Source: a bacterium (GTDB lineage Bacteria; Patescibacteriota; Minisyncoccia; JAHIHE01; JAGLIN01). From it: DNA of 59,830 nucleotides. The notes under the pieces were generated by a model that saw nothing but the letters and a program-made list of their open reading frames with translations, had not been told where the DNA came from and searched no databases. Shown piece after piece: positions 20,231 to 51,341 of this stretch (positions are counted from its first letter, which is position 1; each line of letters opens with the position of its first letter). Location of the stretch: assembly GCA_030638825.1 (NCBI GenBank), contig DAOWDU010000053.1, positions 1-59,830 of the forward strand, given 5' to 3'. The position numbers and the translations under genes were made by a program.

Positions 20231-20232
20231 TT

Positions 20233-23791: not shown

Positions 23792-25645
23792 TTATTCATC
23801 ATTTTTATTTTCTTGATCATAAAAGTTATATAATTCATCTCTATAATATTTTTCCATAAATTCATCTAAATATGGTAAAAATAATTCATATTTTTTATCC
23901 CCCTGCATTCTTTCTTTTATAGGTAACTCTTTATCTTTCCAAATCTCTTTTGCAACATCTTCTGCAATTTGAAGACCCTTTTTATCGGTATAAGCCCCCA
24001 TTCTAATTAAATATGGAACGAACATAGGATCAACTCTTAATAAACGCAAACATTCCTCAAACTCTTCTACAGATTCCGCTTCTTCCAATTCTAACATTTT
24101 AACCTCACCTTCAAAATATATTTTATCTTGAGGATAATATTTTCCTCCCTCTTTGGGATTAAATCCTTTAAATGTTCTAAGACAATTCTTTTTGGCTATT
24201 TTTTTTGCAATCCTTTTGCTTTTTTCTTCAACTTTCTCAATTTCTTTTATTAGAACTTTTTTCTCGTTATCATTATTTGCAATATCTAATTGTTCTTTTG
24301 TATTGTTATATTCATTTTTATATAATTCTTCTCTAAGCTTTAAATTATAGATATATTTAAAAGTTTTTGCATAATTCCAACCATTTTTATATTCTCCGTT
24401 TTTATTTTTTTCTCCCCTGATTTTTTCCATAGCTAAAATATAATATGGTTCAGCGCTAATTTCAAAATCACAAAATTCTTCCTTGAGCATTTCTTTTGCT
24501 ACTCTCGCTTCGCTCCTTTTTGATATTCCTTCATTAACAACATTCCATCCTTTCCCCATCGTTCCATTAAATCCCTGCTTTTCATTATAAATATTGGTAG
24601 TCACATGCCTGCCTATTTCATGCGCAACAAGTCTCATTAACTGAAGTCCATTTTTTTCTGCGTCAGGAGGAATTAAAATAACAGGACAATCATATCCAGA
24701 ACGATTGGTGCTAACTATAATACCTGTAATATTTTTATCAATAAACACTTTATATCCAGCATCAGATAATTTTCCTTTTATAAGAGCCAACTCAAGAACA
24801 GTTTTTATACCTTGCGCATCAAACATAGTATCCTCTAATTTTTTTTCTAATTTACCTTTTTCTGGTCTGTCTTTAAAAAATTTTAATTTTTCTTTATATA
24901 TATCATTTGCGCTTTGGCACAAATTATCATTTATGTCATTATGCACAATCTTAATCTGCTCAAAAGCATTCTTGTCATTGCCATTTTTTTTATTTATGCA
25001 AAAATCTATCAAGGCATTGGATGATAGTAATAACTCATCAAGAATTTTTTTAGTGTTTTCGTTTTTACATTCAACATTTATTTCCTTTTCAATATCTTCT
25101 AATTCATTGCTTGTTTCTTTAAGTTTTTCTTCGTCAAGTTTCTCTATTTCCGGATAAATAAAGGTTGGGCACATCTCAGTATATTCTTCGTTAGTAATTT
25201 CTTGTTCCTCCTTAGAACATTTTTCAATATATTCTTCATCAGAAACTTCTTGATCCTCGTCTAGATGGTTTTTTATTTTTTCAAAAAATGCATCGAATTC
25301 TTTTTCATAATTCCTCCCTTCCTCTCCTTTCGGCTCAACAAGAGCTCTTGGACCATACGGCTTTACAATATCATTAATTCTATTTGAATATTCAATCAAT
25401 TGTTTCTTCGCTTCTCGCTTTTCTATTGTATTAACATTTATATTCAAATCTTCAACCATAAATTTTATCTCTTCGATTTTTCCCGTTTCATCTCTATTTT
25501 CTTTTTTTGAACAAGGCATTTCATCCAAAACTGCTTCTGCAATATCTTCTGTTATAATTTCATCAACAGTGTCATTAATTTCTTCTTCTGCTTTCGCTTT
25601 TTTAATTTCAGAAGCTATATCTAAATATGATGTTTCTTTTTTCAT
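23792..25645 (-). CDS. DUF1704 / MATCAP-like metallopeptidase-domain protein (paralog 1) with a long acidic N-terminal extension
   Basis: LVAHEIGRHVTTN (HExxxH), WNVVNEGISKRSE (QEGLA-equivalent), YYPQDKIYFEGEV. Confidence 0.75.
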   Translation of the reverse strand: MKKETSYLDIASEIKKAKAEEEINDTVDEIITEDIAEAVLDEMPCSKKENRDETGKIEEIKFMVEDLNINVNTIEKREAKKQLIEYSNRINDIVKPYGPRALVEPKGEEGRNYEKEFDAFFEKIKNHLDEDQEVSDEEYIEKCSKEEQEITNEEYTEMCPTFIYPEIEKLDEEKLKETSNELEDIEKEINVECKNENTKKILDELLLSSNALIDFCINKKNGNDKNAFEQIKIVHNDINDNLCQSANDIYKEKLKFFKDRPEKGKLEKKLEDTMFDAQGIKTVLELALIKGKLSDAGYKVFIDKNITGIIVSTNRSGYDCPVILIPPDAEKNGLQLMRLVAHEIGRHVTTNIYNEKQGFNGTMGKGWNVVNEGISKRSEARVAKEMLKEEFCDFEISAEPYYILAMEKIRGEKNKNGEYKNGWNYAKTFKYIYNLKLREELYKNEYNNTKEQLDIANNDNEKKVLIKEIEKVEEKSKRIAKKIAKKNCLRTFKGFNPKEGGKYYPQDKIYFEGEVKMLELEEAESVEEFEECLRLLRVDPMFVPYLIRMGAYTDKKGLQIAEDVAKEIWKDKELPIKERMQGDKKYELFLPYLDEFMEKYYRDELYNFYDQENKNDE

Positions 25646-25672: not shown

Positions 25673-27106
25673 CTAATTTTTCTTATGATTCAAGATACTT
25701 TCACGAAATTCTTTGTTATTCCATAAACGCTCCGCAATTTCCTTTATTCTATTAAAATCTTTTTCATACTTATACGCTCCTATTTTTATTAACGCTGGAA
25801 TATATTTAGCGTCAACTCTGGATAAATATAAATATTTTTCTAATTTTTCTCCAGATTTTATTTTATTCAATTCCCGAATAATAACTTCTCCTTCAAAATA
25901 AATTTTATCTTTCGGAAAATACATCCCACCTTTTTTGGGATCAAAACTCTTAAAAACTCTTACACAAATTCTCTTTGATATATCTACAGATTTTTTTTCG
26001 CAATCTTTTTCTATTACTTTTTTCTTGTTAATATTTTTCTTATTATAATATCCACAATCACATAAATATTCTTTGTAACATTTGTTGAATATATATTTAT
26101 ACACTTTATTGAAATTCCATCCCTTTTTTATTTTCTCTATCGCCAAAATATAATACATTGAAAAATCATATTCTGCGTCTACATATGAATTTTCAAGTAT
26201 TATTTTTTTAATTTCATTTTCATTTTTTTTCGCCAATCCTTCACTATAAACATTCCAGCTTCTTCCTATTTCAGCAACTAGTCCTTGCTTTTTATGATAA
26301 TAATTGGTCGTCGCATGCTTTCCTGTCTCATGGGCAATTAATTGCATAATTCTTATTCCACTAGCTTTAATTTCAGACGGTATTGAAATAACAGGACAAT
26401 TATACCTAAAATCTTTTTCATTAATTTTTATACTGGAAATTTTATCATCAATTAAAACTTTGTAATTATTTTTCAATCCAGATTTCTCTAATGCTAATTC
26501 AAAATATTTTTTAATTCCTAACGCGTCAAAATTTATTCCTTCTAATTTATTTTCCAGCGCGCTTTTCTCTGGTCTATTTTTTAGAAATTTCAATTTTTCT
26601 TTATATGCTTTATTCGCTTTATTAAATAATTCCTCACTAACATCCCCATAAATAATTTTAGAATATTTAAAAGCTTTTTTGAAATTTTTTAGTTTTAATT
26701 CCTTGAGAAAATTTACTTTAGCTAAAGCTATTTCCAAAGATTCAGAAATTATTTTATAAATATCGTCACAAGCGCATTCTTTATAAACTTTTTCTTTTAA
26801 CATACTAAGTTTCAATATTACTGTATCAACATCTTTAATATCTACTTTTTCAATTTCTGGATAATCAAAACTTGGACAATATTTATCATCTATTTTTATT
26901 TTCCTTAAAAACAGTTTAAATTCTTTCTCAAAATTTATATAGTTCCTGCCAACAGGTTGGACAAAAAATAAAATCTCGTCATATTTGCCTAATGTTTTAC
27001 AAATTTCATTCAAATATTTTTTCAACTTTTTCAATTCTAATAAATCCACCTTTTTATTTTTCTCCGCTTTTTTTATCTCTGATATTATTTTCTTAAGATT
27101 TTGCAT
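25673..27106 (-). CDS. DUF1704 / MATCAP-like metallopeptidase-domain protein (paralog 2)
   Basis: LIAHETGKHATTN (HExxxH), WNVYSEGLAKKNE, YFPKDKIYFEGEV. Confidence 0.75.
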   Translation of the reverse strand: MQNLKKIISEIKKAEKNKKVDLLELKKLKKYLNEICKTLGKYDEILFFVQPVGRNYINFEKEFKLFLRKIKIDDKYCPSFDYPEIEKVDIKDVDTVILKLSMLKEKVYKECACDDIYKIISESLEIALAKVNFLKELKLKNFKKAFKYSKIIYGDVSEELFNKANKAYKEKLKFLKNRPEKSALENKLEGINFDALGIKKYFELALEKSGLKNNYKVLIDDKISSIKINEKDFRYNCPVISIPSEIKASGIRIMQLIAHETGKHATTNYYHKKQGLVAEIGRSWNVYSEGLAKKNENEIKKIILENSYVDAEYDFSMYYILAIEKIKKGWNFNKVYKYIFNKCYKEYLCDCGYYNKKNINKKKVIEKDCEKKSVDISKRICVRVFKSFDPKKGGMYFPKDKIYFEGEVIIRELNKIKSGEKLEKYLYLSRVDAKYIPALIKIGAYKYEKDFNRIKEIAERLWNNKEFRESILNHKKN

Positions 27107-27125: not shown

Positions 27126-28019
27126 TTATTTAGAAAACATATATTGCGATGTTTTTTCTAAGTGCCATATCTCTTTCCATCCTAAATCTCCCATCCCCGC
27201 ATCTAAATATTTTGCCTTAAATTCAATAGCTCTTTCTATTTGTTGATATATAATATAGCTTCCGAGATTAAATGTATCATTTTTATTAGATCCAGTATTT
27301 ATATAATTATAGACATTATTATATTTTATAGAAAAAGAAACAGCTTCTTTTTTACCATTAATAATATAAGAAAGTAAGTGGATATCAAAATTTAATTCCA
27401 GCAAGTCATGAAACATTTCACTGCGAAATGGTTTATTAAATGATGATTTTTCTCCAAAAGATTTTTTGTTTAATTCAACTAATAAGTCCATATCGCTATA
27501 ATTATTTATGATTATTTTTGGATTTAATTGTTTAATGATCTCTACCTTTTTTTGTAATTTTTTTCTTGATCTCGCTTTAAAATTTTTAATTAGGTAATCT
27601 TCCGCATTATTAGCAACAGAAAGATTTGCAACATATTTATATTTATATACATCAAGAGATTTCGTAAATTGATCTTCGCCAATAATTTTCGCAAGTTTCA
27701 CAGAAAATGTAATTGCATCATAAAATTGTTCAATACAATCTTCGTATCCTGGCTTTATAAAAACACGATTGTCTCTCATAAAACCACCGCCAAAAAATTC
27801 TAAGTATTTTTCATCTTCATTAAACTGAAGAGGAAGTAACCCAATAACTTCTTCTTGATCTAATCCCACATAAAAATATAACGGATAGTTAAAATATTTA
27901 TAAAAACAATAGCGATAATTCCAATCATCGCAAATTACATTATTGGGACTTAATTTATCCCAAACTTTTTTTGCTTCCTCTATATTATTTACAAGCTTTA
28001 TGCTTATTCTTTTTTCCAT
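27126..28019 (-). CDS. GNAT-fold Acetyltransf_6 (CelD/BioF2/FemAB-like) protein, paralog 1
   Basis: Length ~297 aa. LEFFGGGFMRDNRVFI; C-terminal GKKEAVSFSIKYN...LDAGMGDLGWKEIWH matches the Fem/CelD-like pattern (..G.piA......Dfg.G...YK..w). Confidence 0.65.
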   Translation of the reverse strand: MEKRISIKLVNNIEEAKKVWDKLSPNNVICDDWNYRYCFYKYFNYPLYFYVGLDQEEVIGLLPLQFNEDEKYLEFFGGGFMRDNRVFIKPGYEDCIEQFYDAITFSVKLAKIIGEDQFTKSLDVYKYKYVANLSVANNAEDYLIKNFKARSRKKLQKKVEIIKQLNPKIIINNYSDMDLLVELNKKSFGEKSSFNKPFRSEMFHDLLELNFDIHLLSYIINGKKEAVSFSIKYNNVYNYINTGSNKNDTFNLGSYIIYQQIERAIEFKAKYLDAGMGDLGWKEIWHLEKTSQYMFSK

Positions 28020-28026: not shown

Positions 28027-28923
28027 TTATTTATAAATAAAATCGTATTGTGGTATTTTTTTAAGATGCCATCTTTCTTTCCAGCCCAAAGCTTCTAGTC
28101 CTGCATCAAATATTTTTGATTTAATTTTAACCGCTTTATCAATATTTTTATAAATATTGTAAGTTCCTAAATTGGAAATGGCTTCTTTATTAGTTCCCGC
28201 ATTTATGTAGACATAGATATCATTATATTTTATAGAAAAAGAAACAGCTTCTTTTTTACCATTGATAATATAAGAAAATAGATGAATATTAAAATTTAAT
28301 TTAAGCAAATCATGAAATGTTTCTGTACGATACGGTTTATTGAATGATGATTTTTCTCCAAATGTTTTTTTATTTAGTTCAAACATTAAATCTAAATCCT
28401 CATAATTATTTTCAATTATCATAGGATCTAACGATTCAATTGATTTTATTTTTTTATGCAACCCGTACCTAGTTTTCGCTTTAAAATTTTGAAATAAATA
28501 ATCATCAACATCTTTTATTATAGATAGGTCTGCTATATATTTTTGTACAGAAACATTAAAACTTTTTGTAAATTGATCTTGACCAAAAATATGAATAATC
28601 CTTACAGGTATTGTAATCGCATTATAAAATTGTTTAATACAATCTTTATATTCTGGTTTTATAAATACACGATTGTCTTTCATAAAACCACCACCAAAAA
28701 ACTCTAAGTATTTTTCATCTTCGTTATATTGAAGAGGAAGCAATCCAACAATTTCTCCCTTGCTTAGTCCCACATAAAAATATAGAGGATAGTCGAAATA
28801 TTTATAGAAACAATAGCGATAATTCCAGTCATCGCAAAGAAAATTGTTTGGACTTAATTTATTCCAAATTTTTTTTGCTTTTTCTATATCATTTACAATT
28901 TCTATGTTTATTTTTTTTTCCAT
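28027..28923 (-). CDS. GNAT-fold Acetyltransf_6 (CelD/BioF2/FemAB-like) protein, paralog 2
   Basis: Collinear with 27126-28019. Shared blocks: DDWNYRYCFYKYF, EDEKYLEFFGGGFM, SYIINGKKEAVSFSIKYN. Confidence 0.65.
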   Translation of the reverse strand: MEKKINIEIVNDIEKAKKIWNKLSPNNFLCDDWNYRYCFYKYFDYPLYFYVGLSKGEIVGLLPLQYNEDEKYLEFFGGGFMKDNRVFIKPEYKDCIKQFYNAITIPVRIIHIFGQDQFTKSFNVSVQKYIADLSIIKDVDDYLFQNFKAKTRYGLHKKIKSIESLDPMIIENNYEDLDLMFELNKKTFGEKSSFNKPYRTETFHDLLKLNFNIHLFSYIINGKKEAVSFSIKYNDIYVYINAGTNKEAISNLGTYNIYKNIDKAVKIKSKIFDAGLEALGWKERWHLKKIPQYDFIYK

Positions 28924-28958: not shown

Positions 28959-30251
28959 TCATTTAACTTTAATTTTTATTATATCTTTTATTTTTTCTAT
29001 ATCTCTATATAGAATGTTTTTATTATAACTATTCAATACAATTAATAAAACATATATGTGACCATCTCTTGAATATCCACAATCATCTCCATTTTTTTTT
29101 ATTTGATTGTATCTCAAAAAAGATTTCAATTTTTTCAATTTTTCAATGCCCTGAATTGAAACAAGTTTTCCTTCTTTTTCTGGAAATATCTCAAAAACTG
29201 CTGTGTGTGATTTTATTTTTTTGGGGATAATTAATTTCTTCCCCATTTTATTTAAAAAATCATTTTCTTGATGTTTAATACCAAAAGATAATTTTAGCAT
29301 TTCATTTCTGTATCCACCTGGTCTAGTTTGAAGTTCAACAATTTTCCATTTTCCTTTCTTCGTTCTCATAAGTTCTATATGAACCGTGACTGCGCTAGGT
29401 TTTGTTGATTTTATAGATTTTTTTGCTACCACTTGAGCTTTTTTTTCTTCTTTTTCGCCTATATTTGTTGGAGTTAATCTATAATAATTAAAAAAATCAT
29501 CAATGCCTATATCCTTCCCCGTAACAACTCTAACAATTGGCGTAAAATATATTTTTCCTTTTGCATTTATATAAGCATCAATTGAATAAAGATCTCCTTC
29601 CATATATTCTTCAGCTAAAATCATTGGCTTGCTTTCAGAATTAACTTTTTTATAAACTTTTTCTATTTTTTTAAAACTATGTTTTAAATTATTTTTCAGC
29701 TCTTCACTATTATCTGATTTAATAACTAACCTGCTTTTTGTAAGATTAAGCGGTTTTGTTATGCAAGGAAATCCAATTTTCTTTGCAATTTCCTTAGCTT
29801 TTTGAGACTCATTAATCAACATAAATTTAGGCGATATTTCAGGATAATATCTTTTAAATCTTTTTCTCATCTCAAACTTGCTATTACAAATTTTAAGAGC
29901 CTTCACTGTCGGCATATTGACACTTGGTAATAATTTTACCAATCTCGCATACAAAGGCATCCACGATTCAAAATAACAAAAAACGACGACGACTTTATTT
30001 CTAATTGGCATTATTACTTTTTTAATTTCTACTATATTTTTTGTATCACATCTTAAAATAAAATCTAGTCTTTTCTCAACGCCTTTTTGCTTGACCTTTT
30101 TATTTAAATCGAGATTATGAGATGTTAAAAGAGCAGTTCTAAATTTTCTCTTTTGAGATCTTTCAAAGTCTTCTACATCATCAATATTAATATTAAAAAC
30201 ATCCCCAACAAATAATATAATGTTTCTTTCTGTTTTCTTTACTTTTTTCAT
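28959..30251 (-). CDS. ATP-grasp domain ligase, paralog 1
   Basis: ITKPLNLTKSRLV, LAEEYMEGDLYSIDAY, VHIELMRTKKGKWKIVELQTRPGG. Confidence 0.75.
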   Translation of the reverse strand: MKKVKKTERNIILFVGDVFNINIDDVEDFERSQKRKFRTALLTSHNLDLNKKVKQKGVEKRLDFILRCDTKNIVEIKKVIMPIRNKVVVVFCYFESWMPLYARLVKLLPSVNMPTVKALKICNSKFEMRKRFKRYYPEISPKFMLINESQKAKEIAKKIGFPCITKPLNLTKSRLVIKSDNSEELKNNLKHSFKKIEKVYKKVNSESKPMILAEEYMEGDLYSIDAYINAKGKIYFTPIVRVVTGKDIGIDDFFNYYRLTPTNIGEKEEKKAQVVAKKSIKSTKPSAVTVHIELMRTKKGKWKIVELQTRPGGYRNEMLKLSFGIKHQENDFLNKMGKKLIIPKKIKSHTAVFEIFPEKEGKLVSIQGIEKLKKLKSFLRYNQIKKNGDDCGYSRDGHIYVLLIVLNSYNKNILYRDIEKIKDIIKIKVK

Positions 30252-30361: not shown

Positions 30362-31645
30362 TTATTTAACAACAATCCTAACAATCTCCCCTATTCTCTC
30401 CAAATCCCCTTCAAAAACTTTTCTATTTTTACCATTCAAAACCACCTGCAAAACATAAATATATCCATCCCGAGAAAACCCGCACATTTCACCAATTTTC
30501 TTCGCCTGCTCATATCTCACAAACGATTTTAATTTCCTCATTTTTTCAATGCCTTTAACAGAGACTAATTTACCTTCCCGCTCTGGGAAAATTTCAAATA
30601 CTGCTGTGTAAGATTTTACTTTTTTAGGAATAATTGGTTTTTTGTCCATTCTGTTTAGAAAATCATTTTCATAATGTTTGATGCCGTAAGATAATTTTAG
30701 CATTTCATTTCTATAGCCGCCAGGTCTTGTTTGGAGTTCTATAATTTTCCAAACGCCAGTTTTAGTTTTCGTCAATTCTATATGCAAAGTAATTGAAGTC
30801 GGACCAGTCGCTTTAACCGCTTTTCTAGCGACTATCTGCGCTTTTTTTTCTTCGTTGGAATTTAGATTAGCTGGCGTTAATCTGTAGTAATTAAAAAAAT
30901 CATCAATCCCAATATCTTTTCCCGTCACAACTCTAACGATCGGCGTGAAATAAATCTTGCTTTTAGAATTGACATAAGCGTCAATGGAATATAAATCGCC
31001 TTCCAAATATTCTTCCGCCAAAACCAACGGCTCGCTTTCGGAATGAACTTTTTTATAAACGCTTTGGATTTTGCTAAAAGTACTTTTTAAATTGCTTTTC
31101 AATTCTTCTAAATTATTTGACTTGACAACTAATCTACTTTTTGTTAGATTCAACGGCTTTGTAATACAAAGAAATTTTATTTTCTTTGCTATAATTTCAT
31201 AATCATTTAAATTTTTTACCAGCATGAACTTCGGTGTAATTTCTGGATATAGTTTGATAAACTTTTTCCTCATCTCAAACTTGCTATTGCAAATCTTTAA
31301 TGATTTCACTGTCGGCATATTAACATTTGGCAATAATTTAACCAACCTTGCGTACAAAGGCATCCACGATTCAAAATAGCAAAAGACAATTATAATTTCA
31401 TCTTTAATCGGCTTGATTATTTTCGCGATACTTTTAATATCTTTCGTATCACACCTCAAAACAAAATCAAATCTTTCCTCCATTCCTTTTTGCTTCGGCG
31501 GTTTTTCGTTTAGATTGATTTTAGGAGAAGTTATAATAGCTGTCCTAAATTTTTTATTCTGCGATTTTTCAAAACTCCTGACTTCGTCAAGATTGCTATT
31601 ATATGCGCTTCCCAAAAAAAGAATTATATTTTTGTTTTTTAGCAT
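30362..31645 (-). CDS. ATP-grasp domain ligase, paralog 2
   Basis: Collinear with 28959-30251. Shares an identical 20-residue run, VFCYFESWMPLYARLVKLLP, plus LAEEYLEGDLYSIDAY and IELQTRPGGYRNEMLKLS. Confidence 0.75.
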   Translation of the reverse strand: MLKNKNIILFLGSAYNSNLDEVRSFEKSQNKKFRTAIITSPKINLNEKPPKQKGMEERFDFVLRCDTKDIKSIAKIIKPIKDEIIIVFCYFESWMPLYARLVKLLPNVNMPTVKSLKICNSKFEMRKKFIKLYPEITPKFMLVKNLNDYEIIAKKIKFLCITKPLNLTKSRLVVKSNNLEELKSNLKSTFSKIQSVYKKVHSESEPLVLAEEYLEGDLYSIDAYVNSKSKIYFTPIVRVVTGKDIGIDDFFNYYRLTPANLNSNEEKKAQIVARKAVKATGPTSITLHIELTKTKTGVWKIIELQTRPGGYRNEMLKLSYGIKHYENDFLNRMDKKPIIPKKVKSYTAVFEIFPEREGKLVSVKGIEKMRKLKSFVRYEQAKKIGEMCGFSRDGYIYVLQVVLNGKNRKVFEGDLERIGEIVRIVVK

Positions 31646-31663: not shown

Positions 31664-34498
31664 TTACCACTCCCCAAACAACTTCCGATAAACTTCCAGA
31701 TCCCCACTTAAATTATATTTTATTTTCTCCTTATCTATTATCCCCAATTCTATGAATAAAGGCAATAAATAAGGATCAATTTTCGCTATAATTAGATAAT
31801 CTTCTAAATTATTATCGCGCATTTTTTTCGCTAAAATCTCGCCCTCTAAATACATTTTATCTTTTGGAAAATACGCTTTGCCTTTTGACAGACTCTCTCT
31901 AAATCCGCGAAAGATTCTTTTGCAGATAAATAACGCTTCTTTCTTTGAAATTTCTTCGGCGTTGTACTCGTCAATATTTTTTGCTTGATATTCTTTTATT
32001 TTTAATTCAGAGATATAATCAAATGCCTGATGAAAATTAAACCCGCTTTTTATTTTGTTCATCGCTAAAATATAATATGGATTTGGCAGTTCTTTTTCCG
32101 CGCCGAAAATGTTGTTGACAAAATCATTGCTAATTATTCTCGCAAAACCCTCTTGATAAAGTTCATAATCCCTGCCAAAAATAACTCCGCCAAATCCTAA
32201 GGCGTTATTATTGCTGTTTGTTTTCAAATGAATAACTTCATGAATAATCTTCCTCGCTAAATCCAAACCGTTTGTTTTCTTTTTTGTAGGAATAACAATT
32301 GTTGGAGAATCATATTTTGTTGAATTAAATTTTACATCAATCTGACTAACATCTTTATCAAGTGCAACGCTCCATTCCGATAATTCCATAATTTTTAAAA
32401 CTTCTTCAAATTTGTTTTTTACTTGCCTAGAACTAAATGTTTTTTCTTTTAAATTGATAAGCTGCTCATCATCCTGTTCCTGATGCTCTAATAATTTCTG
32501 ATAAACCCCTTCCGCTTTTTTTACTAAATCGTTATTTATATCTCCATAAATTTTCTTAGCGTACTCAAAAGATTTCGCCTCGTCTTTTTGTTTTACGGAC
32601 ATTAAAAAATTTATTTTATTCCTGCTTAAAGACGCCGCTTCTTGAATTATCTGTTTTACAAAATCATTATTTTCAAATTTTACGCTCTCGCAAATATTAT
32701 CTATGCTTTTCAAGGCCGCTTTAAATTGCTCTTCTCTGAATTTTTTTAGAACTGGGTATTTAAACACTGGATTATATTCTCTTTCGTTTTCTTTTTCTAA
32801 AAACAAATTTAGTTCTGCGAAAGAACTTCTTTTTTCAGATCCGGAGGGAACAATGAAAGAAAAGACATCGTTAAATTCCCCAGCCACTTTTTCTATTTCT
32901 TCCGCATAAAATATAACTTTTTCTTTAGCAAATGAATTTTCTTCCTGTTTATTTTTTTCCGCTTTTAAAATTGCTTTTATAGTTTCTTTAATTTCTCTTT
33001 TTTTATTATCATTTCCTAATGATTGAACTAAACGAGATTGAACCTTGCTCGGATCCACCAAAAACCTCCCCAAATCTTTCCGTCCGATGATCACTGGAAA
33101 TTCCAAATTACTTCTGTCCGTCACAGACATTTTTGAAATTACTGAAACGCCAGATAATATTATTTTCATTTTAATCAGCAAACGATAAGAAACTCCGTGG
33201 CTGGATTTGATAACAACTGTGTCAAAATCATCTCCCCATTTTTCTAATCTATCTTTTATTTTTTCATCCAAACTTTCTTTCGTAGAATTATTTTCTATTT
33301 CTAATTTTTTAACAACTTCCTGGAATTCATCTATCACCTCTTCGTAGCCCAATTTTCTCGCCAGCTCCTCATCAATTGATGATCTATCTGCTCCCGTATC
33401 TATTTTAGCTTTTAACTCTATTTCTTCTGCTTTCATTTTTTCACTGTTTTTATCATCTACATCTTTATTTTCTTTATTCATAATTCCTAATTCATAATTC
33501 ATAATTCCTATCGTCTCAATAATCCCCAAAATTTGCTTCCCAGAAATATCTTCAATTTCTTCTTCAATTTCTCCGCCAAATAAATCCTGCGCGATTCTAA
33601 TCCCGTGCGTTTCATTTTTTACTTTTAAGCCGCTTACTTTTTTTAATCTATATTTCAGCGGCGCCAGATTAGCAATCTGGATGGAAAGTCCAGCATGCGC
33701 GTTTATTTCCAAAACGACTGGTCCCCGCTCACTGTCAATCGCAATATCAACGCCGATATATCCTAACTTAGAAACCTCTTGGCACTTAATCGCAATTTCC
33801 AAAATTTCTCGCCAGTAGGGAATTTTAATTCCTTTCAAAGTTAATTTTGTATCGGGATGTTTTTCAATCAAAAAATCTCTCATCACGGCATTAGTCGTCA
33901 CGCCTGTGGCAATATCCACGCCCAATCCTATTCCACCCATATGCAAATTCGCTTTTCCGCCAGATTCTTTTGTCGGCAAACGAAGCATCGCCATCACAGG
34001 AACTTTATTATAGACAATTACTCTGATATCAGGAATTCCTTTGTAAGAATATGGCTTGAGAATTTTTAAAAGTTTAATTCTCTCTTCAAAAAAAGCGATA
34101 TCGGAAGCTCCTGAAAAAGAATAGAATCCTTCAAAAATATCCATAATATGATTTCGCAAATCCTTGATCGTCATTTTTCCGCCTTCTGTTGAAACCCAGC
34201 TTTGATCTTTTTTCTGTCCAAAAATTACTTTGATCCCTTTCCCGCCGCTTCCGCAATTCGGCTTCAAAACAAAACTTTTCGGCAAGTCGTCCCATTTAAA
34301 AACTTCCAGCTCTTTTCTGTTTCTAATAACGCCATAGATTTTAGGAACTGGAATTCCAGCCTTAAAAAGCGCTTCCTTGCTCCGCAGTTTATTATTCGCA
34401 AGATGAATCGCGCCCTGAAGATTATTTGGTCTGATATAAGAAAGGTTTCTCGCGTTCATCCCGAGGAGACCTTTGCTGTTTTTGAGGAAAGTAAACAT
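31664..34498 (-). CDS. Triple-domain fusion: RimK-related alpha-L-glutamate-ligase-like ATP-grasp + DUF785 retropepsin-like domain + DUF1704/MATCAP-like metallopeptidase
   Basis: aa 1-~310: LLGMNARNLSYIRPNN, VLKPNCGSGGKGI, GIPDIRVIVYNKVPVMAMLRLPT..SGGKANLHMGGIGLGVD, GVDIAIDSERGPVVLEINAHAGL. aa ~355-490: AKIDTGADRSSI...SVTDRSNLEFPVIIGRKDLGRFLVDPS. aa ~520-944: IIHEVIHLKTN, YQEGFARI, YFPKDKMYLEGEI. Confidence 0.85.
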   Translation of the reverse strand: MFTFLKNSKGLLGMNARNLSYIRPNNLQGAIHLANNKLRSKEALFKAGIPVPKIYGVIRNRKELEVFKWDDLPKSFVLKPNCGSGGKGIKVIFGQKKDQSWVSTEGGKMTIKDLRNHIMDIFEGFYSFSGASDIAFFEERIKLLKILKPYSYKGIPDIRVIVYNKVPVMAMLRLPTKESGGKANLHMGGIGLGVDIATGVTTNAVMRDFLIEKHPDTKLTLKGIKIPYWREILEIAIKCQEVSKLGYIGVDIAIDSERGPVVLEINAHAGLSIQIANLAPLKYRLKKVSGLKVKNETHGIRIAQDLFGGEIEEEIEDISGKQILGIIETIGIMNYELGIMNKENKDVDDKNSEKMKAEEIELKAKIDTGADRSSIDEELARKLGYEEVIDEFQEVVKKLEIENNSTKESLDEKIKDRLEKWGDDFDTVVIKSSHGVSYRLLIKMKIILSGVSVISKMSVTDRSNLEFPVIIGRKDLGRFLVDPSKVQSRLVQSLGNDNKKREIKETIKAILKAEKNKQEENSFAKEKVIFYAEEIEKVAGEFNDVFSFIVPSGSEKRSSFAELNLFLEKENEREYNPVFKYPVLKKFREEQFKAALKSIDNICESVKFENNDFVKQIIQEAASLSRNKINFLMSVKQKDEAKSFEYAKKIYGDINNDLVKKAEGVYQKLLEHQEQDDEQLINLKEKTFSSRQVKNKFEEVLKIMELSEWSVALDKDVSQIDVKFNSTKYDSPTIVIPTKKKTNGLDLARKIIHEVIHLKTNSNNNALGFGGVIFGRDYELYQEGFARIISNDFVNNIFGAEKELPNPYYILAMNKIKSGFNFHQAFDYISELKIKEYQAKNIDEYNAEEISKKEALFICKRIFRGFRESLSKGKAYFPKDKMYLEGEILAKKMRDNNLEDYLIIAKIDPYLLPLFIELGIIDKEKIKYNLSGDLEVYRKLFGEW
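33481..33508. repeat. Heptanucleotide tandem array, 4 x TAATTC[CA] (28 nt), in the inter-domain linker of the fusion gene
   Basis: taattcctaattcataattcataattcc; translated as IGIMNYELGIMN on the minus strand. Confidence 0.95.
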
Positions 34499-34519: not shown

Positions 34520-35167
34520 TTATTTATCAACATTCTTCATAACCTCCCTAAACCTCAAATACTCGCTCAAACGAATTCCAGTCCAGCGGCCTAAGAAGAT
34601 ATTGATAACAAATAATAACAAAATATATTCTGGATGATCAAGAACTAAATTTTTGAAAACATCCCAGATGATAAAATAATAGCAGGCAATGGAAATAACA
34701 AGCGTTTCAATAGAAAGAACTGCTGCTGTTCTAAATCCTTTTTCAACTTGAGTGGAAATAAATTTTTCTATTAAAGTTATCAAAATTAAAATCGGCAAAA
34801 TAGAAGTTGCCGCTAGTCCAGTTTTATTTAAATACCCGCCAACTGCCAGTAGCGCTAAAATCGCTAAACTAATCACCGTCAAAACAATCGCCATTCTCGG
34901 CATATACAATAAGCGAAAATTTCTCAAGATATACCTCACTGCTGTTCCAGTTATAAAAATAACTAAGAAAATAGCTATTCCATATTTAATTCCAATCGCC
35001 CAAAAAGCGAAAGTCAAGACTAATGGCGTATAAATACCAAACGATTTGACTCCAATCAACTGCCGAAACGCCGCAATCAAAGTAGCGACAAAAGGCAACG
35101 CGAGAATTAAATAAATTGTTTCGATACTCACGCCTTGGGAAGCGATGAGTTGGATTATGTTGGACAT
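34520..35167 (-). CDS. 7TM membrane protein of the type usually fused to an inactive transglutaminase (7TM_transglut-like)
   Basis: Seven hydrophobic helices in 215 aa. It sits immediately upstream of, and co-directional with, the RimK-related ligase, as in the known 3-gene cassette. Confidence 0.65.
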   Translation of the reverse strand: MSNIIQLIASQGVSIETIYLILALPFVATLIAAFRQLIGVKSFGIYTPLVLTFAFWAIGIKYGIAIFLVIFITGTAVRYILRNFRLLYMPRMAIVLTVISLAILALLAVGGYLNKTGLAATSILPILILITLIEKFISTQVEKGFRTAAVLSIETLVISIACYYFIIWDVFKNLVLDHPEYILLLFVINIFLGRWTGIRLSEYLRFREVMKNVDK

Positions 35168-35847: not shown

Positions 35848-36618
35848 TTATTCCGGCAAATTCTTTCCTTCCAATTCTTTCCACAAAGAATCAAACATAA
35901 ATTTAACTAACAAATAAATCGTTTCGTTTTTAATCAAAATTGAGGAGTACGATTTTTGGAGTGAAATAAGAGCAACTTTGTTATTATAAAGAAGCATTCC
36001 TGAATCAAAATTTTTAACTGTCGGCAAAAATCTTATCTCTCGAAAATCAGTATCTCCTTCACGATATAATTTTTTGTTATGAGCGTGATAATCAGTAATA
36101 ACATATGCTTTAGTGCCTCCAATCTGGCGGCGTTTTTTTGTTACATCAGAAAGAATGCGTGATAATCCAAGATGTTCATAGGTTTTTCCAGGAAATATGA
36201 CATGGAGATCTTTTCGGCTTTTTAATATATTTTCTATGATATTCCAAGTACCTTCTATTCCCTGAAAATGACGAATTTCTTCTTTTGATTCCGTAGTCTT
36301 ATTTTTCAAAATTCTTTCAAGCTGTGGCAAAATATCTTTTATCCTCTTTTCTTCTTTCTCAATTTCCTTTTTCTTTATTTGAGCAATCTTAAGTAATTTT
36401 TCTGGTTTTTCGGCAAAAAATATTTTCTTATTTTTTTGAATTATTTCGCCTACCAGTCCTATTTGCTTTAATCTTTCCAAAACTAAATAAACTGTCGTTC
36501 TTTTAACACCAGTTTCAATAGCAATATTCTGAGCAGAAATAGAGCCAAGCTTAAGAATAGCCAAGTATATTTTAATCTCCTTTTCTTTCAATCCAATTTG
36601 TTTTAAGCTTTTAAACAT
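35848..36618 (-). CDS. TrmB-family HTH transcriptional regulator
   Basis: GLKEKEIKIYLAILKLGSISAQNIAIETGVKRTTVYLVLERLKQIGLV. Confidence 0.75.
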   Translation of the reverse strand: MFKSLKQIGLKEKEIKIYLAILKLGSISAQNIAIETGVKRTTVYLVLERLKQIGLVGEIIQKNKKIFFAEKPEKLLKIAQIKKKEIEKEEKRIKDILPQLERILKNKTTESKEEIRHFQGIEGTWNIIENILKSRKDLHVIFPGKTYEHLGLSRILSDVTKKRRQIGGTKAYVITDYHAHNKKLYREGDTDFREIRFLPTVKNFDSGMLLYNNKVALISLQKSYSSILIKNETIYLLVKFMFDSLWKELEGKNLPE

Positions 36619-37880: not shown

Positions 37881-38609
37881 CTATTCCTCCAAATTACTAA
37901 AAACCTCCCCCACATCCTCCTGCTCATTCAATGCTTCAAATAATTTTTCTATCCGCGCGTTTATTTTTTCGTCATCAATTTTGATAGTATTTTTTGCTTT
38001 CCACTCAAAGCCAGTGTCATTTATTTTTATCTTATTTTTTTCCAAATTTTCTTTTACTTTATATAAATCTTCAGGCTTAGTGTAAATTATCACGATATCG
38101 TCAATCAATTTGAAATCATCAGCTCCTGAATCTATAATTGCCATTTCTAAATCATCCTCACTTATCTCTAAATCCTTTTTATCAACTTCTAAATATCCAA
38201 AACGCTCAAACATCCATTTAACACTTCCGACCTCTCCCAGCCTTCCACTGCCCATAGAAAGAATATGTTTTATTTCCGCCACGGTTCTGTTCGTATTATC
38301 CGTCGTGCCTTCTATAATTATCGCAATCCCGCCGGGACCATAGGCTTCATACAAAACTTCTTCAATCGTCCCGCCTTCCAGTTCGCCTGTTCCTTTTTTA
38401 ATCGCTTTCTCAATATTATCCAAAGGCATATTCGCCTGCTTCGCTTTTTCAACTGCAAGCTTTAGAGCGGGATTCATACTTGCGTCCCCTCCTCCGTTTT
38501 TCGCCATCAGCGTCACCACTTTAGAAAGCTGTGAAAAAACTTTTCCTTTCTTCACATCAGCAACGCCCTTCTGTCTTTTGATTTTTGACCATTTTGAATG
38601 TCCAGACAT
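37881..38609 (-). CDS. YebC/PmpR-family DNA-binding regulator
   Basis: MSGHSKWSKIKRQKGVADVKKGKVFSQLSK. Confidence 0.95.
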   Translation of the reverse strand: MSGHSKWSKIKRQKGVADVKKGKVFSQLSKVVTLMAKNGGGDASMNPALKLAVEKAKQANMPLDNIEKAIKKGTGELEGGTIEEVLYEAYGPGGIAIIIEGTTDNTNRTVAEIKHILSMGSGRLGEVGSVKWMFERFGYLEVDKKDLEISEDDLEMAIIDSGADDFKLIDDIVIIYTKPEDLYKVKENLEKNKIKINDTGFEWKAKNTIKIDDEKINARIEKLFEALNEQEDVGEVFSNLEE

Positions 38610-40312: not shown

Positions 40313-42832
40313 TTAATTCTCACTCACTTTTTTCTTACTTCTATCTATCTTAATCCTAATCCAATCAACCAAAATCAAAATACTTACTACAATCATTATA
40401 CCATAAAAAACAAAATTGCCACTTTTATTTTCTCCTTCAAAATTCTTAACATTTTCAGAAACATTCAAAACCTCAGACGCTTTTGCTATTCCTGAAACTC
40501 TGCTTAACCTTAAATCTCCCTGAAATCTTGGTAAAATTCTATAGCCCAAAGAAGTCTGACTTACTTGTCCCGTAATTACCATCCAATCGCCAATCTTTAT
40601 TTCTGGTTTTTTAATTTCGGTCTGCGGTTTCAAATAAATCTTTACTTCTCCGCTTCCGTCATCAAGATAAAAAACATCGCTTTTGATTTGAGAAACTTTT
40701 CCTTCAATAGTTATTAAATATCCCTCAACTGTTTTGCCTACATTTCCTGTTAAAATAATTTCTGACTGAACTAAATTGTCATGGCTAATAATTTTTAAAT
40801 CTTCGTCTTTATCTAATAAAATTCTCCTTTCTCCTCCCACTTCCGAAATTCTGCCGATGATTTCAACTTCATCGCCGATATTTAAATTTGGAATTTTATT
40901 TTCGTAACTATAAACCTGAATTCCGCTTCCAGAAATATAAAAAATATTATCAGCAAATATTCCAGGAGGCGTAGAAACAATTCCGCTTGTTTTTATTTTT
41001 GAGTATTTTGTAAAATGTTTAATGTCTTCCAAGCTTACTTCTACATAATCTAAATCCTCTTCGTCAGAAGCTGAGCTTCCTATAGGAAGCTCAGCTTCTT
41101 CAGTATCATATTCTATTTTATTGCTTTTACCAATAAAATTCAAACTCCTATTTTCTTCTTCCGGAGTAATAACAGAACTCCAAAACCAGCTTTCATCATT
41201 AGCTAAATTATACGACAAACCTTCATCCGCTTTTTCGTATTTTATTTTGTCAACAATTGTTCCGTCCGGCCAGAGCAGATTAACTTCATCGCCAGTATTA
41301 TTAAGCGCTATTTTTGTCCGAGCGGCATCAAATATTTCATAACTTCTCGCTTTAATAATTTCATTTTCTATCACATAAGCCTTGCTTCCTTTTTCTAAAA
41401 TATCATCAAGCATCCAGCCGTTTAAATTCACTTCGCGATCAGAATCATTATATATTTCTATCCATTCATAATTGCCATTTCTATTATCCCTCCCCTCTGA
41501 ATTCGGATAAATTTCAGAAATTATTATTCTGTCTGAAAAGTCATAATCGTCACCACCATTGGCTCCATTGTCCCGCAGGGCTGTGGAGTCCGTGTGCTCG
41601 TCATCGTCATCGTCATTATTATTATCGTCAATTTCCCCTTTCACAAAGGGGGCTGGGGAGATTTTGTTATTATCAGATTCGGAATCTTTTATTTCATTCG
41701 TCTCCTCCGTCTTAATCACATTTTCTCTTCCCGGCGTCGGCTTCATCGTCCAAACCCAATTTTCATTTTCATCCAAAGCAAATGCCCGCTCTTTCAAAGC
41801 CGAATCGCTTATTTCAGTTTCATCTATAATATTATTTTTATAATCTCTCAAAACAATTCCATCACCTGAATTATTCAAAGTTATTTTTGTTTCATCGCTA
41901 TAAAATGCTTTATATTTTCCAGCGCCTATTTTAGTTCCCTCCGAAATTACAAACTTTTTCACACTGCCCATTTTATCTTCCAAGACACAGCCACCCAAAT
42001 CAACTTCTTCATCGCCATTATTATACAACTCTATAAACTCATCGCTTTTATCACTCCCTTCTGGATCTAACAAAAACTCCGTAATAATAATATCGTCAAC
42101 TCCCCCTTTCACAAAGGGGGCTGGGGGGATTTCGTCGTCGTCATTATCATTATCTACAGAAATATCTCCATCGTTGGCTCCAGTTTCCTGACTGGAGCCA
42201 TCTTGCACAGAATCATCGCCGTTATTATTTGAATTCTGCGGCTCCAGATTATCCCGCAAAACAAAATCATTTTTATTATTATTTGTATCTTGAATTATGT
42301 TATCTACAATTTTTCTTACCAAACTTTGATTATTTTTTAAATTTAAATCAATTGCCTCGCCCTCAAAATCACTCGCCTCTCCCCAACCAATTTTATCAAC
42401 CAAATTTCCATCGCCGTCGTATAATAAAACAGTATTATCATTTGCGAGAAAACTATTTGTCGTATACTCGTTATCTGCGGCAACATTTCCCTGGTAACAT
42501 TTTTCTATTTTACTTTCCCCGCAATTAGCTCGCGGCGCGATTAGAAAATAGCCGCGAGCAAAAATTATGCCTTCAATATTATTTAAAATATTACTCTCGC
42601 TCCCGCTTTTTGTCTTTTTCTTTACATCCCAATCTTCAAGATTTACATCTAAATTAGTCGGATTATACAATTCTATAAACTCATCATAAACCGTCTCCCC
42701 GCCAATTTGAATTTCACTGATAACAAGATGATTTGCATTACTGTTTGCCAAAATAAAATTATTGTATACAAAAAAACTCCCACAGAGAAGAAGAGTTAGC
42801 AAAAAATAAATAATTTTTTTATTTCTGTTCAT
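40313..42832 (-). CDS. Lamin-tail-domain (LTD) repeat surface protein with OB-fold-like modules and a C-terminal TM anchor
   Basis: Repeated LTD signatures (VISEIQIGGE..DEFIELYNPTN..VNLEDWDV; IITEFLLDPEGSD..EFIELYNNGD; IISEIYPNSEG..EWIEIYNDSD). N-terminal signal and C-terminal hydrophobic helix. Confidence 0.85.
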   Translation of the reverse strand: MNRNKKIIYFLLTLLLCGSFFVYNNFILANSNANHLVISEIQIGGETVYDEFIELYNPTNLDVNLEDWDVKKKTKSGSESNILNNIEGIIFARGYFLIAPRANCGESKIEKCYQGNVAADNEYTTNSFLANDNTVLLYDGDGNLVDKIGWGEASDFEGEAIDLNLKNNQSLVRKIVDNIIQDTNNNKNDFVLRDNLEPQNSNNNGDDSVQDGSSQETGANDGDISVDNDNDDDEIPPAPFVKGGVDDIIITEFLLDPEGSDKSDEFIELYNNGDEEVDLGGCVLEDKMGSVKKFVISEGTKIGAGKYKAFYSDETKITLNNSGDGIVLRDYKNNIIDETEISDSALKERAFALDENENWVWTMKPTPGRENVIKTEETNEIKDSESDNNKISPAPFVKGEIDDNNNDDDDDEHTDSTALRDNGANGGDDYDFSDRIIISEIYPNSEGRDNRNGNYEWIEIYNDSDREVNLNGWMLDDILEKGSKAYVIENEIIKARSYEIFDAARTKIALNNTGDEVNLLWPDGTIVDKIKYEKADEGLSYNLANDESWFWSSVITPEEENRSLNFIGKSNKIEYDTEEAELPIGSSASDEEDLDYVEVSLEDIKHFTKYSKIKTSGIVSTPPGIFADNIFYISGSGIQVYSYENKIPNLNIGDEVEIIGRISEVGGERRILLDKDEDLKIISHDNLVQSEIILTGNVGKTVEGYLITIEGKVSQIKSDVFYLDDGSGEVKIYLKPQTEIKKPEIKIGDWMVITGQVSQTSLGYRILPRFQGDLRLSRVSGIAKASEVLNVSENVKNFEGENKSGNFVFYGIMIVVSILILVDWIRIKIDRSKKKVSEN
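41634..41666. repeat. Palindromic REP-like element in frame inside the LTD gene, copy 1
   Basis: tCCCCTTT-CAC-AAAGGGGgctggggagatttt; encodes SPAPFVKGE. Confidence 0.8.
42101..42134. repeat. Palindromic REP-like element in frame inside the LTD gene, copy 2
   Basis: tCCCCCTTT-CAC-AAAGGGGGctggggggatttc; encodes PPAPFVKGG. Confidence 0.8.
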
Positions 42833-43890: not shown

Positions 43891-45027
43891 CTACATCACA
43901 AAATCCAAATAATTTTCCTGATTGATTATTTTAAATTCCGCATTATCATAAGTCTCTTTCCAAAGTTTCGGCTCTTTCTTTTTCTTATCTCCCCACTTCA
44001 TTTCATAACCAAATAATTTTCCATCTCTCTCTTCCACCCAGTCAATTTCTTTTTGATCATAAGTCCGCCAGAAATAATTATTGGCATAAATCGGTTGATA
44101 AGCTTGTTTTTTCAACCGCTCCATTACTAAATAATTTTCCCAAAGCGCGTCGATGTCGTTTCTTAAATCAAGCGGGTTGAAATTATTTATCAAGGCGTTA
44201 CGCACTCCGTTATCATAAAAATAGTAGCGGGAAGTTTTGGCAATTTCCTTTCTTAAATTACGGCTAAATCCTCTAATATTAATAATGATAAAAGATTTTT
44301 CCATTAAGTCCAAATAGCGAGCAACTGTATCATTATGCAATTCCAAGGACTTAGCCAACTCCGAGAGAGAAACTTCTTTTCCTATTTGAAAAGCCAACAA
44401 AGCGAGTAGATCTCTAATTTTCTTAGAATTCTTAATCTGTTCTAATTCAAAAATATCCCGAAATAAATAGGAGTCAATCAACTCGCCTAAATATTTATTC
44501 TTCTCTTCATTTGAACGCAAGTTAAATAGTTCAGGATATCCGCCAAAAATCAAATGGGCTTCAAATATTTGCTGATAATAAGTTAGATCTTTAATGCCGA
44601 CTAATTCCTTAACTGAAACTGGATAAAGAAAAACTGTTTTTTTTCTGCCAGTTAATGGCTCCCCAACTTTTTGCGCCAATGCAAAAGAAGCAGACCCACT
44701 GGCAATAACTTTAATTTTAGGAAGATGATCAACAATCAGTTTTAAATTAAGTCCAATCCCTGGAATTTTGTGCGCTTCGTCAACAATAAGCAAACTGGCA
44801 TTTCCCACAAAACTTCTTAATTTTTCTATTGATTGAGAAGAAAGCTCTTTTTGAATTATTAAATCTTCTCCGCTCACAAATTTAATATTTTCCTCGTTTT
44901 CTAAATTTTTAACCAGTTCTTTTAATAATGTTGTTTTGCCAACTCTTCTCGGACCATAAAGCAAAATCACCTTGTTTTCCTGCAATTTTTGCTTGAGTAA
45001 ATTATATGCTTGTCTTTTTATAAACAT
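43891..45027 (-). CDS. AAA+ ATPase with DUF4143 domain
   Basis: GPRRVGKTTL, LLIVDEAH, YFWRTYDQKEIDWVEE. Confidence 0.9.
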   Translation of the reverse strand: MFIKRQAYNLLKQKLQENKVILLYGPRRVGKTTLLKELVKNLENEENIKFVSGEDLIIQKELSSQSIEKLRSFVGNASLLIVDEAHKIPGIGLNLKLIVDHLPKIKVIASGSASFALAQKVGEPLTGRKKTVFLYPVSVKELVGIKDLTYYQQIFEAHLIFGGYPELFNLRSNEEKNKYLGELIDSYLFRDIFELEQIKNSKKIRDLLALLAFQIGKEVSLSELAKSLELHNDTVARYLDLMEKSFIIINIRGFSRNLRKEIAKTSRYYFYDNGVRNALINNFNPLDLRNDIDALWENYLVMERLKKQAYQPIYANNYFWRTYDQKEIDWVEERDGKLFGYEMKWGDKKKKEPKLWKETYDNAEFKIINQENYLDFVM

Positions 45028-50285: not shown

Positions 50286-50425
50286 AGAATTATATTGTTA
50301 AATGGAAATTAATTGAAACTCGTAGAAATTAAATTGTTATTTTCTAAGGACAATTAATTTCAAATAGTTTCTATCAATTTCCATAAATTTCTACATCATT
50401 ACGCTATTTATAATAATAGAACAAT

Positions 50426-51217: not shown

Positions 51218-51249
51218 TTTGTTTTAATTTTTAGTTTTTAATAAATGAG

Positions 51250-51334: not shown

Positions 51335-51341
51335 GTCGTTT

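Follow-up and report, generated by a model that had tools for sequence, protein, structure and literature searches.

A predicted ATP-grasp ligase, a retropepsin-like protease and a MATCAP-fold peptidase module joined in one polypeptide of Patescibacteria

Introduction

The closest described counterparts of the system considered here are the Rlo operon of Pseudomonas aeruginosa, the RimK-RimB pair and the eukaryotic tubulin tail cycle. The system centres on a 944-amino-acid (aa) protein encoded at positions 31664-34498 on the minus strand of contig DAOWDU010000053.1 (59,830 nucleotides (nt); GenBank assembly GCA_030638825.1; Patescibacteriota), the whole of which is referred to as the window, and joins a ligase module, a retropepsin-like module and a MATCAP-fold module. 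In P. aeruginosa, the RloA proteases are secreted retropepsins which cut runs of at least eight glutamates, RloB is a seven-transmembrane (7TM) protein with an inactive transglutaminase, and RloC is an ATP-grasp protein and putative ligase; when a triple rloA mutant also loses rloB or rloC, its osmotic, biofilm, antibiotic and cell-shape defects are suppressed (PMC12239564). RimB, a retropepsin-like endopeptidase of the cytoplasm, strips ribosomal protein S6 of the glutamates that RimK has added and stimulates the synthesis of poly-alpha-glutamate by RimK, and a natural RimB-RimK hybrid (RimBK), found in 12 % of rim-bearing genomes, has been purified and is proteolytically active (PMC11957791). 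Enzymes of the MATCAP family are metallocarboxypeptidases which take tyrosine and glutamates off the acidic tails of tubulin (PMC10499314). No paper connecting DUF1704, the bacterial domain of MATCAP fold, with an ATP-grasp ligase was found in the literature searched.

The window system resembles the Rlo operon in its probable TIGR02291-type ligase, its PF05618 retropepsin with a DTG motif and what appear to be the basic channel residues, and the PF14402 partner adjoining the ligase. Unlike in that operon, the ligase and protease are contained in one polypeptide, the protease carries no signal peptide and is cytoplasmic where RloA is periplasmic, the 7TM partner (215 aa) is without a transglutaminase-like ectodomain, and a MATCAP-fold carboxypeptidase is added, which is absent from the proteobacterial operons examined. 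With RimK-RimB and RimBK it shares an ATP-grasp ligase paired with, or fused to, a retropepsin-like endopeptidase located in the cytoplasm; the endopeptidase takes off the polyglutamate made by the ligase, or in the window is predicted to do so. However, the domain order is reversed, with RimB N-terminal in RimBK and the ligase N-terminal in the window protein, and the window ligase is not of RimK type; the system is an analogue and not a member. The Rim systems, the substrate of which is ribosomal protein S6, have neither a 7TM partner nor a carboxypeptidase module. In the tubulin tail cycle (TTL/TTLL with MATCAP/TMCP; PMC10499314, 7z5g, 7z6s), an ATP-grasp ligase adds, and a MATCAP-fold zinc carboxypeptidase removes, residues of an acidic C-terminal tail, as is predicted for the window system, but the window ligase is RimK/RloC-like and not TTL-like, and the eukaryotic enzymes are separate proteins.

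Architecture and integrity of the fusion protein

The open reading frame (ORF) runs from an ATG to a stop codon with zero internal stops; at the window GC content of 32 %, 944 stop-free codons would occur by chance with a probability of about 1e-37. A Pfam scan places three domains on the protein, each above its gathering score. The original prediction, made from the letters and translated ORFs of the window, had described a single 944-aa ORF with three modules and no internal stops, and every motif it quoted (GMNARN, KPNCGSGGKGI, GIPDIRVIVY...GKANLH, LEINAHAGL, DTGA and DRSNLEFPVIIGRKDLGRFLVDP) is found in the protein. The AlphaFold model of the full fusion, based on an alignment of 61 homologues, has a mean predicted local distance difference test score (pLDDT) of 88.9 and comprises three confidently folded bodies, with low-pLDDT segments at aa 1-14, 310-319, 340-356 and 487-498. 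The features of the fusion, with the evidence for each in brackets (pN/pS, the ratio of non-synonymous to synonymous changes), are as follows.

31664..34498, minus strand: three-module ORF comprising ligase, retropepsin and MATCAP-like peptidase (ORF, Pfam, NCBIfam, alignment, AlphaFold, pN/pS)
33578..34498, minus strand: predicted ATP-grasp ligase module of RloC / TIGR02291 type, aa 1-307 (PF14397, TIGR02291, invariant residues, fold match, pN/pS 0.07-0.18)
33536..33577, minus strand: conserved acidic linker (linker 1) GEIEEEIEDISGKQ, aa 308-321 (near-invariant motif, pLDDT below 50)
33041..33535, minus strand: predicted retropepsin-like aspartic endopeptidase of RloA/RimB type, aa 322-486, with a variable loop at aa 334-357 (PF05618, 9g58/9g59 alignment, invariant residues, pN/pS 0.19-0.28)
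32993..33040, minus strand: junction 2, a variable near-neutral linker (linker 2), aa 487-502 (low pLDDT, in-frame length changes in 16 orthologues, pN/pS 0.5-1.5)
31667..32992, minus strand: metallopeptidase module of MATCAP/DUF1704 fold, aa 503-944 (PF08014, domain model, Foldseek, invariant motifs, pN/pS 0.17-0.34)

These limits, taken from the AlphaFold model, agree with the junction coordinates originally given (around 33560 and 32950). The first strand of the retropepsin precedes the variable loop, which puts the start of that module near aa 322 and not near 355; the MATCAP module begins near aa 503 and not near 520. A sequence-based check found no signal peptide, hydrophobic N-terminus or membrane helix in the fusion protein, and all three activities are therefore placed in the cytoplasm.

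A search space of 5.8 billion proteins yielded 22 protein clusters of 916-973 aa, all with the same three Pfam domains and with 61-99 % identity to the window protein, originating from ENA, NCBI, JGI and Logan assemblies. One three-domain protein (P0007) is encoded, amid the same order of genes, on contigs from two separate ENA samples, and two loci with the fusion as a single ORF (L005 and L006) belong to GTDB species representatives. Both junctions vary in length among 16 aligned orthologues (62-85 % identity), with the reading frame always kept, and in none of the three modules does a catalytic residue vary. Codon comparison against four independently assembled orthologues, where synonymous sites are near saturation and the ratios hence approximate, gave the segment values listed above; each of the three modules is under purifying selection. 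Since the 22 clusters from four sources share the architecture, the junctions are in frame and the modules are under selection, the fusion is real, and the assembly chimera against which the original prediction had cautioned is effectively excluded by independent assemblies. The fusion of the window type is a narrow clade inside a broad system; when 1.84 billion proteins were clustered at 50 % identity, its three-domain clade was reduced to one representative (P0016).

The ligase module and acidic linker

The ligase module is matched by the ATPgrasp_ST family (PF14397; aa 17-289, 250.4 bits, cutoff 31.4), and the N-terminus of the protein by the NCBIfam model TIGR02291 'alpha-L-glutamate ligase-like' (300.4 bits). 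The RimK-type profiles fall short (TIGR00768, 59.8 bits, cutoff 143.4; PRK10446, 21 bits, cutoff 331), and by sequence the module is not of the RimK but probably of the RloC type. Four residues which are invariant among the sixteen orthologues (K79, D251, E264 and N266) represent the ATP-grasp lysine and the acidic and asparagine Mg-binding residues. A fold search identified RimK (5zct, 4iwx and 7qys) as the closest solved fold, followed by LysX/ArgX and cyanophycin synthetase. The module is basic, with a K+R fraction of 0.16 against 0.09 for D+E.

The linker which follows has the motif LFGG-E-[IV]-E-E-E-x-E-[DE]-x-SG-[KR], which is near-invariant over approximately eighty species loci, and is modelled as flexible (pLDDT below 50 at aa 310-319). 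Situated beside a predicted polyglutamate-channel protease, this acidic segment looks like a putative pseudo-substrate, primer mimic or processing site.

The retropepsin module

The middle module is matched by PF05618 (Zn_protease/RimB-like; aa 352-487, 36.5 bits, cutoff 27) and weakly by the NCBIfam equivalog profiles for RloA1-3 (25-41 bits against cutoffs of 210-280). K365, D367-T-G-A, R439, D461-R462 and G472-R473 are invariant among the sixteen orthologues. Alignment to RloA-type structures (PDB 9g58 and 9g59) places K365, R439 and R462 at the K-x-D, 'R-P-V-I' and 'T-D-R-S' positions, respectively, and by offset these appear to correspond to RloA K46, R114 and R137, the residues needed for polyglutamate cleavage (PMC12239564). 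The N-terminal signal peptide by which RloA is separated from RimB is absent, the retropepsin being an internal domain of the fusion, and judged by its predicted location the module is RimB-like and not RloA-like. Peptidases of the RloA/RimB class are homodimers, with the active site lying between the subunits; the model of the fusion is that of a single chain.

The C-terminal MATCAP/DUF1704 module

PF08014 (MATCAP/DUF1704) covers aa 571-892 of the C-terminal module with 45.2 bits (cutoff 27), and the N-termini of standalone MATCAP proteins align directly after linker 2. A sequence search with the module against the PDB gave no match, and a fold search was therefore required; as ATP-grasp matches dominated the search with the whole model, the module was modelled separately (pLDDT 94.4, predicted TM score (pTM) 0.92). 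Human MATCAP (7z5g/7z6s) accounted for the only significant Foldseek matches (top five; E 3e-5, TM 0.64), with M32 carboxypeptidases ranking after it as weak matches. The two proteins share, besides the fold, the motifs QEG.A and KD..Y..G at a sequence identity of about 15 %. H753-E-V-I-H757 and Q782-E-G-F-A are invariant among the sixteen orthologues, and the HExxH form, one residue shorter than HExxxH, is found in 22/22 three-domain proteins, whereas human MATCAP, P0062, the canonical bacterial members and the two standalone paralogues of the window carry HExxxH. The shorter motif probably still constitutes a zinc site, in a variant form. On its profile scores, the module is no more than a distant relative of the proteobacterial QEGLA proteins. 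We know of no bacterial MATCAP/DUF1704 member with assayed carboxypeptidase activity.

Distribution and fusion spectrum

Hidden Markov models (HMMs) built from the window proteins were used to survey 84 related loci, comprising four encoding contigs and eighty GTDB species-representative loci, mostly of Parcubacteria/Paceibacterota, Moraniibacteriota, Falkowbacteria and Doudnabacteria. The gene order YebC, RuvC, 7TM and ligase plus retropepsin is essentially universal among these, with the 7TM gene directly upstream of the ligase gene in 83/84 loci and stop and start codons often overlapping. The ligase and retropepsin form one gene (~465-540 aa) in about eighty Patescibacteria species loci, and this fusion is the ordinary state in the lineage of the window. 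MATCAP is fused in five loci (L001, L002, L004, L005 and L006). In eight others (L003, L007-L010, L012, L013 and L016) it forms a gene of its own, 20-50 nt downstream, and about thirteen more have it somewhere in the fetched flank, which extended up to ~5 kb downstream. In L003, for example, there is a genuine stop after the retropepsin and a new start for MATCAP. In a neighbour-joining tree the fused MATCAP modules form one clade, and the standalone MATCAP genes adjoining two-domain proteins fall in other paralogue clades. Three-domain and two-domain proteins are intermixed in the ligase-retropepsin tree, and the attachment of MATCAP is therefore evolutionarily labile.

A second family of about 800 aa, in which ligase, retropepsin and MATCAP stand in the same order downstream of a 7TM gene with a PKD ectodomain, makes up 63 of the best 120 homologues, and is found in Gracilibacteria, Peregrinibacteria and other Patescibacteria under the database name 'DUF1704 / tyrosine-phenylalanine carboxypeptidase domain-containing protein'. 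It was at one stage regarded as a clean independent fusion of ligase and MATCAP without a retropepsin, an interpretation which was dropped when a custom HMM detected a retropepsin-homologous middle region in 62/63 members. This middle module is compact and often degenerate: in a position-based count, D[TS]G is kept in 31/63 members and asparagine replaces the catalytic aspartate in 13/63, while the 'DRS' arginine is mostly gone, with one subgroup (P0055, P0056 and P0059) keeping all of these features. Unlike the window protein, to which they show 30-40 % overall identity, these proteins have a canonical MATCAP (146-209 bits, HExxxH), and their MATCAP modules fall in a separate clade.

Further ligase fusions include ligase-retropepsin-YdjC (P0039), ligase-retropepsin with a second ATP-grasp (P0144), 7TM-ligase (P0256) and transglutaminase-7TM-ligase, a RloB-RloC fusion (P0262). 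Several Patescibacteria 7TM partners bear an extracellular PKD domain in place of the transglutaminase-like one. Variants of the fusion or of the 7TM partner were seen in loci L022, L038, L064, L085 and L086. The ligase is a fusion hub, joined in one direction to a membrane protein and in the other to hydrolases for the processing of its product, and the 7TM-ligase fusions indicate that it works docked to the membrane protein. In the Proteobacteria, where the comparison was limited to the operons inspected, the rloA-rloB-rloC trio occurs without a DUF1704 neighbour and the QEGLA genes without a ligase neighbour; a Legionella plasmid likewise carries the classic separate Rlo trio. The supposition that the three modules are normally separate, with DUF1704 encoded elsewhere, is borne out for these Proteobacteria but not for the Patescibacteria. 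Nor can the joining of a writer with an eraser be called unusual, as had been proposed, because ligase-retropepsin fusion is routine, MATCAP is often adjacent or fused, and the ~800-aa family has the same order, besides the precedent of the active RimBK. The window protein stands at the fully fused extreme of a range of arrangements that is common among candidate-phyla bacteria, and is not an oddity of one contig.

The 7TM partner and gene neighbourhood

On the minus strand, the genes follow in the order YebC, an HTH-like ORF (35848-36618), RuvC, 7TM, the fusion, two ATP-grasp_4 genes, two FemAB-like GNAT genes and two MATCAP paralogues. The features flanking the fusion are the following.

34520..35167, minus strand: 7TM membrane partner, corresponding to the transmembrane part of RloB only, 215 aa (PF14402, match to the RloB C-terminus, about seven helices, synteny)
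30362..31645, minus strand: ATP-grasp_4 / L-amino-acid-ligase-like gene, 427 aa, 18 nt downstream of the fusion (PF13535, 56 bits; weak LAL_C2)
28959..30251, minus strand: second, paralogous ATP-grasp_4 ligase gene, 430 aa (PF13535, 67.9 bits)
28027-28923 and 27126-28019, minus strand: two tandem Acetyltransf_6 (FemAB-like GNAT) genes, 298 and 297 aa (PF13480)
25673..27106, minus strand: standalone MATCAP paralogue 2, 477 aa, HExxxH (PF08014, 48.3 bits; ~31 % identity to the fused module, motifs kept)
23792..25645, minus strand: standalone MATCAP-like paralogue 3, 617 aa, HExxxH (PF08014, 22.7 bits, below the cutoff; aligns with the family, ~30 % identity to the fused module, motifs kept)

The 7TM gene ends 21 nt upstream of the start of the fusion. 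Its product has about seven hydrophobic helices and is matched by PF14402 (7TM_transglut) with 94.6 bits, and by the RloB model NF052267 only at model positions 313-507 (76 bits against a cutoff of 900); it comprises the 7TM part without the N-terminal inactive transglutaminase ectodomain of RloB. The first ATP-grasp_4 gene is kept downstream of the system in L001, L002, L004, L005 and L009, and the tandem pair is likewise present in L001, L002 and L005. A GNAT homologue occurs near the system in L009, and no sequence relative of the GNATs was found in the PDB; judging only from their position, the GNAT genes may be tied to the fusion. The downstream tandem ligases and GNATs suggest a larger peptide-assembly cluster of which they are part.

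Genes trailing the system in related loci were also recorded. In L001 (15200-18558) and L085 (9361-16376) they comprise additional ATP-grasp genes, of which L085 has five, together with a DUF3541-like gene and a DegT aminotransferase; L001 also has MurL (UDP-MurNAc-L-Ala-L-Glu epimerase family). These genes hint at glutamate or cell-wall chemistry. A few genes past the cluster in the window, with a plus-strand NUDIX gene between, lies a 614-aa fusion of Memo-like and PGA_cap (CapA, poly-gamma-glutamate capsule-associated) domains with an N-terminal membrane helix (18413-20257, minus strand).

Predicted function and alternative explanations

We favour, with moderate confidence, the explanation that the locus encodes a compact candidate-phyla (Patescibacteria) form of an Rlo-type ligase/peptidase system, in which a membrane-linked ligase is fused to two hydrolases acting on its product. 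The argument starts from three folds with intact catalytic motifs, selection on the modules, the 7TM pairing, and the functional coupling given by fusion and gene order (7TM in 83/84 loci; MATCAP fused in five, adjacent in eight and nearby in about thirteen). The RloC-like ligase would act at the membrane with the upstream-encoded RloB-like 7TM protein, lengthening an acceptor with alpha-linked acidic (glutamate-type) residues. The retropepsin endopeptidase would cut within long alpha-polyglutamate, capping or releasing the chains, and the MATCAP-fold zinc carboxypeptidase would trim the acidic C-terminal tails one residue at a time, shortening or recycling them. The 7TM partner may serve as enzyme anchor, regulator or product exporter, and a single polypeptide may in this way set the length and turnover of a tail or oligopeptide ahead of its use or export. 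Glutamate as the added residue, a single substrate for all three modules and the role of the 7TM partner are inferred. That a ligase should be joined to peptidases undoing its product, as the original prediction held, fits RimK/RimB and RloC/RloA (PMC11957791, PMC12239564), and processive editing or quality control of the added tail is a reasonable idea. While the ligase-protease part has a published precedent in RimBK (PMC11957791), the covalent and syntenic link of MATCAP to an Rlo-type ligase, and the ligase as a fusion hub, are new with respect to the literature searched.

Several observations weigh against this explanation. The TIGR02291 score of 300.4 bits is slightly short of the trusted cutoff (314.2), the TIGR02421 'QEGLA motif protein' equivalog gives only 43.7 bits against a cutoff of 338.65, and the fused module has HExxH in place of the HExxxH of the family. 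R439 and R462 were mapped to RloA R114 and R137 through orthologous PDB sequences and not through P. aeruginosa RloA itself. Furthermore, RloA of Pseudomonas is secreted whereas the protease is cytoplasmic here, without a signal peptide, so that the pathway has another topology than the only Rlo system studied. Lastly, two extra ATP-grasp ligases, two GNATs and two MATCAP paralogues hint at a product beyond plain polyglutamate.

In the most tenable of the alternatives, the same architecture performs a different chemistry: with the aid of the ATP-grasp_4 ligases and GNATs, a precursor of the cell envelope (such as a peptidoglycan stem or glycopolymer) would be furnished with a specific peptide made without the ribosome, the 7TM protein would pass the peptide over the membrane, and the fused peptidases would edit or mature it instead of trimming polyglutamate. 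Such a role is possible, although we think it unlikely. It is consistent with a cluster rich in amide ligases and peptidyl-transferase-like GNATs, with relatives in which the system has MurL, a DegT aminotransferase and as many as five further ATP-grasp genes beside it, with the Pfam name of the ligase family ('sugar-transfer associated'), with the extracellular PKD or transglutaminase-like domains on some 7TM partners, and with the cell-shape, beta-lactam and osmotic phenotypes of Pseudomonas rlo mutants (PMC12239564). However, the RloA polyglutamate-binding residues appear to be kept in the retropepsin module, RimK is the nearest solved ligase, MATCAP-family enzymes are known on acidic protein tails only, and the accessory genes differ between loci while the 7TM-ligase-retropepsin core is constant.

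The flexible linkers could also be read as marks of a polyprotein, in which the retropepsin dimerises and cuts them in the manner of a retrovirus, freeing three enzymes, so that the fusion would serve for co-expression only. The protease is flanked by two low-confidence linkers, the conserved acidic linker 1 (E-x-E-E-E-x-E-[DE]) resembles a polyglutamate substrate, and fused and split forms are interleaved in the tree, from which it follows that both work. RloA and RimB, however, require about eight contiguous glutamates, and cleavage is lowered or lost when bulky residues interrupt the run (PMC12239564), whereas linker 1 has hydrophobic interruptions and linker 2 is basic and unconserved; moreover, the RimBK hybrid was purified and assayed in its joined form, and self-cleavage is not reported for it (PMC11957791). 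Self-processing of this kind is accordingly rated as distinctly improbable.

A more specific proposal is that of a bacterial 'tail code' machine, which would write, cut and trim the C-terminal glutamate tail of a specific protein, perhaps the translation factor YebC, with the union of ligase and MATCAP as the prokaryotic ancestor of the TTL/TTLL-MATCAP/TMCP pair; this we hold to be a long shot. The YebC gene of the window (37881-38609, minus strand) encodes a protein ending in ...SNLEE. Its counterparts in the closest clade terminate in -EE or -ED and those of more remote relatives in ...YDNL, and the L085 protein has ...SNVE at its end. An -EE C-terminus is reminiscent of the RimK acceptor S6. 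The -EE/-ED endings are restricted to one clade and are therefore confounded with phylogeny, and YebC as acceptor is only a lead. Several standalone MATCAP paralogues of related loci themselves end in -EE, -DE or -GE.

An artefact, whether a chimeric assembly or a sequencing frameshift joining neighbouring genes, has a negligible probability, given that, even though the eight close relatives with a separate MATCAP gene stop after the retropepsin, the architecture recurs in 22 clusters from four data sources, on contigs of two ENA samples and in two GTDB representatives, junction indels are all in frame, and the fused MATCAP modules are a clade of their own with a private HExxH, distinct from the adjacent standalone genes and under purifying selection.

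The fusion connects bacterial DUF1704/MATCAP-fold proteins to an RloC-type ligase and a polyglutamate-type endopeptidase, and these proteins become predicted carboxypeptidases for ligase-made tails. In Pseudomonas the Rlo system influences the tolerance of osmotic stress, the formation of biofilms and the sensitivity to beta-lactams, and with the writer and both erasers in one soluble polypeptide, an Rlo-type product could be made and read in vitro. The ligase-MATCAP link may represent a bacterial counterpart, and possibly the origin, of the eukaryotic tubulin tail cycle.

Other features of the window

Promoter and terminator scans of the AT-rich window DNA gave no usable operon boundaries, and an Rfam scan of the window gave no matches. 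The region at ~50400-56000 is the chromosomal origin region, with yidC (50426-51217, minus strand), dnaA (53171-54535, plus strand) and dnaN (54806-55945, plus strand); the GC skew flips sign near 52-54 kb, and the genes to the left are almost all on the minus strand and co-directional with replication. Three paralogous ATPase genes with AAA_14 and DUF4143 domains are encoded on the minus strand (4957-6192, 43891-45027 and 48511-49644). Restriction-modification is represented by a type I specificity subunit (Methylase_S; 10487-11905, minus strand) and a 606-aa protein comprising HSDR_N, N6_Mtase and an Eco57I-type methylase (13331-15151, minus strand). An intein splicing-domain ORF (2724-3683, minus strand) coincides with the GC-richest part of the window (~0.40 against ~0.32 elsewhere). 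Two further large minus-strand genes encode an 826-aa starch-synthase-like glycosyltransferase joined to an APH-type kinase domain (7866-10346), and an 839-aa protein with three lamin-tail domains and an OB fold (40313-42832), which is found upstream in L001 too.

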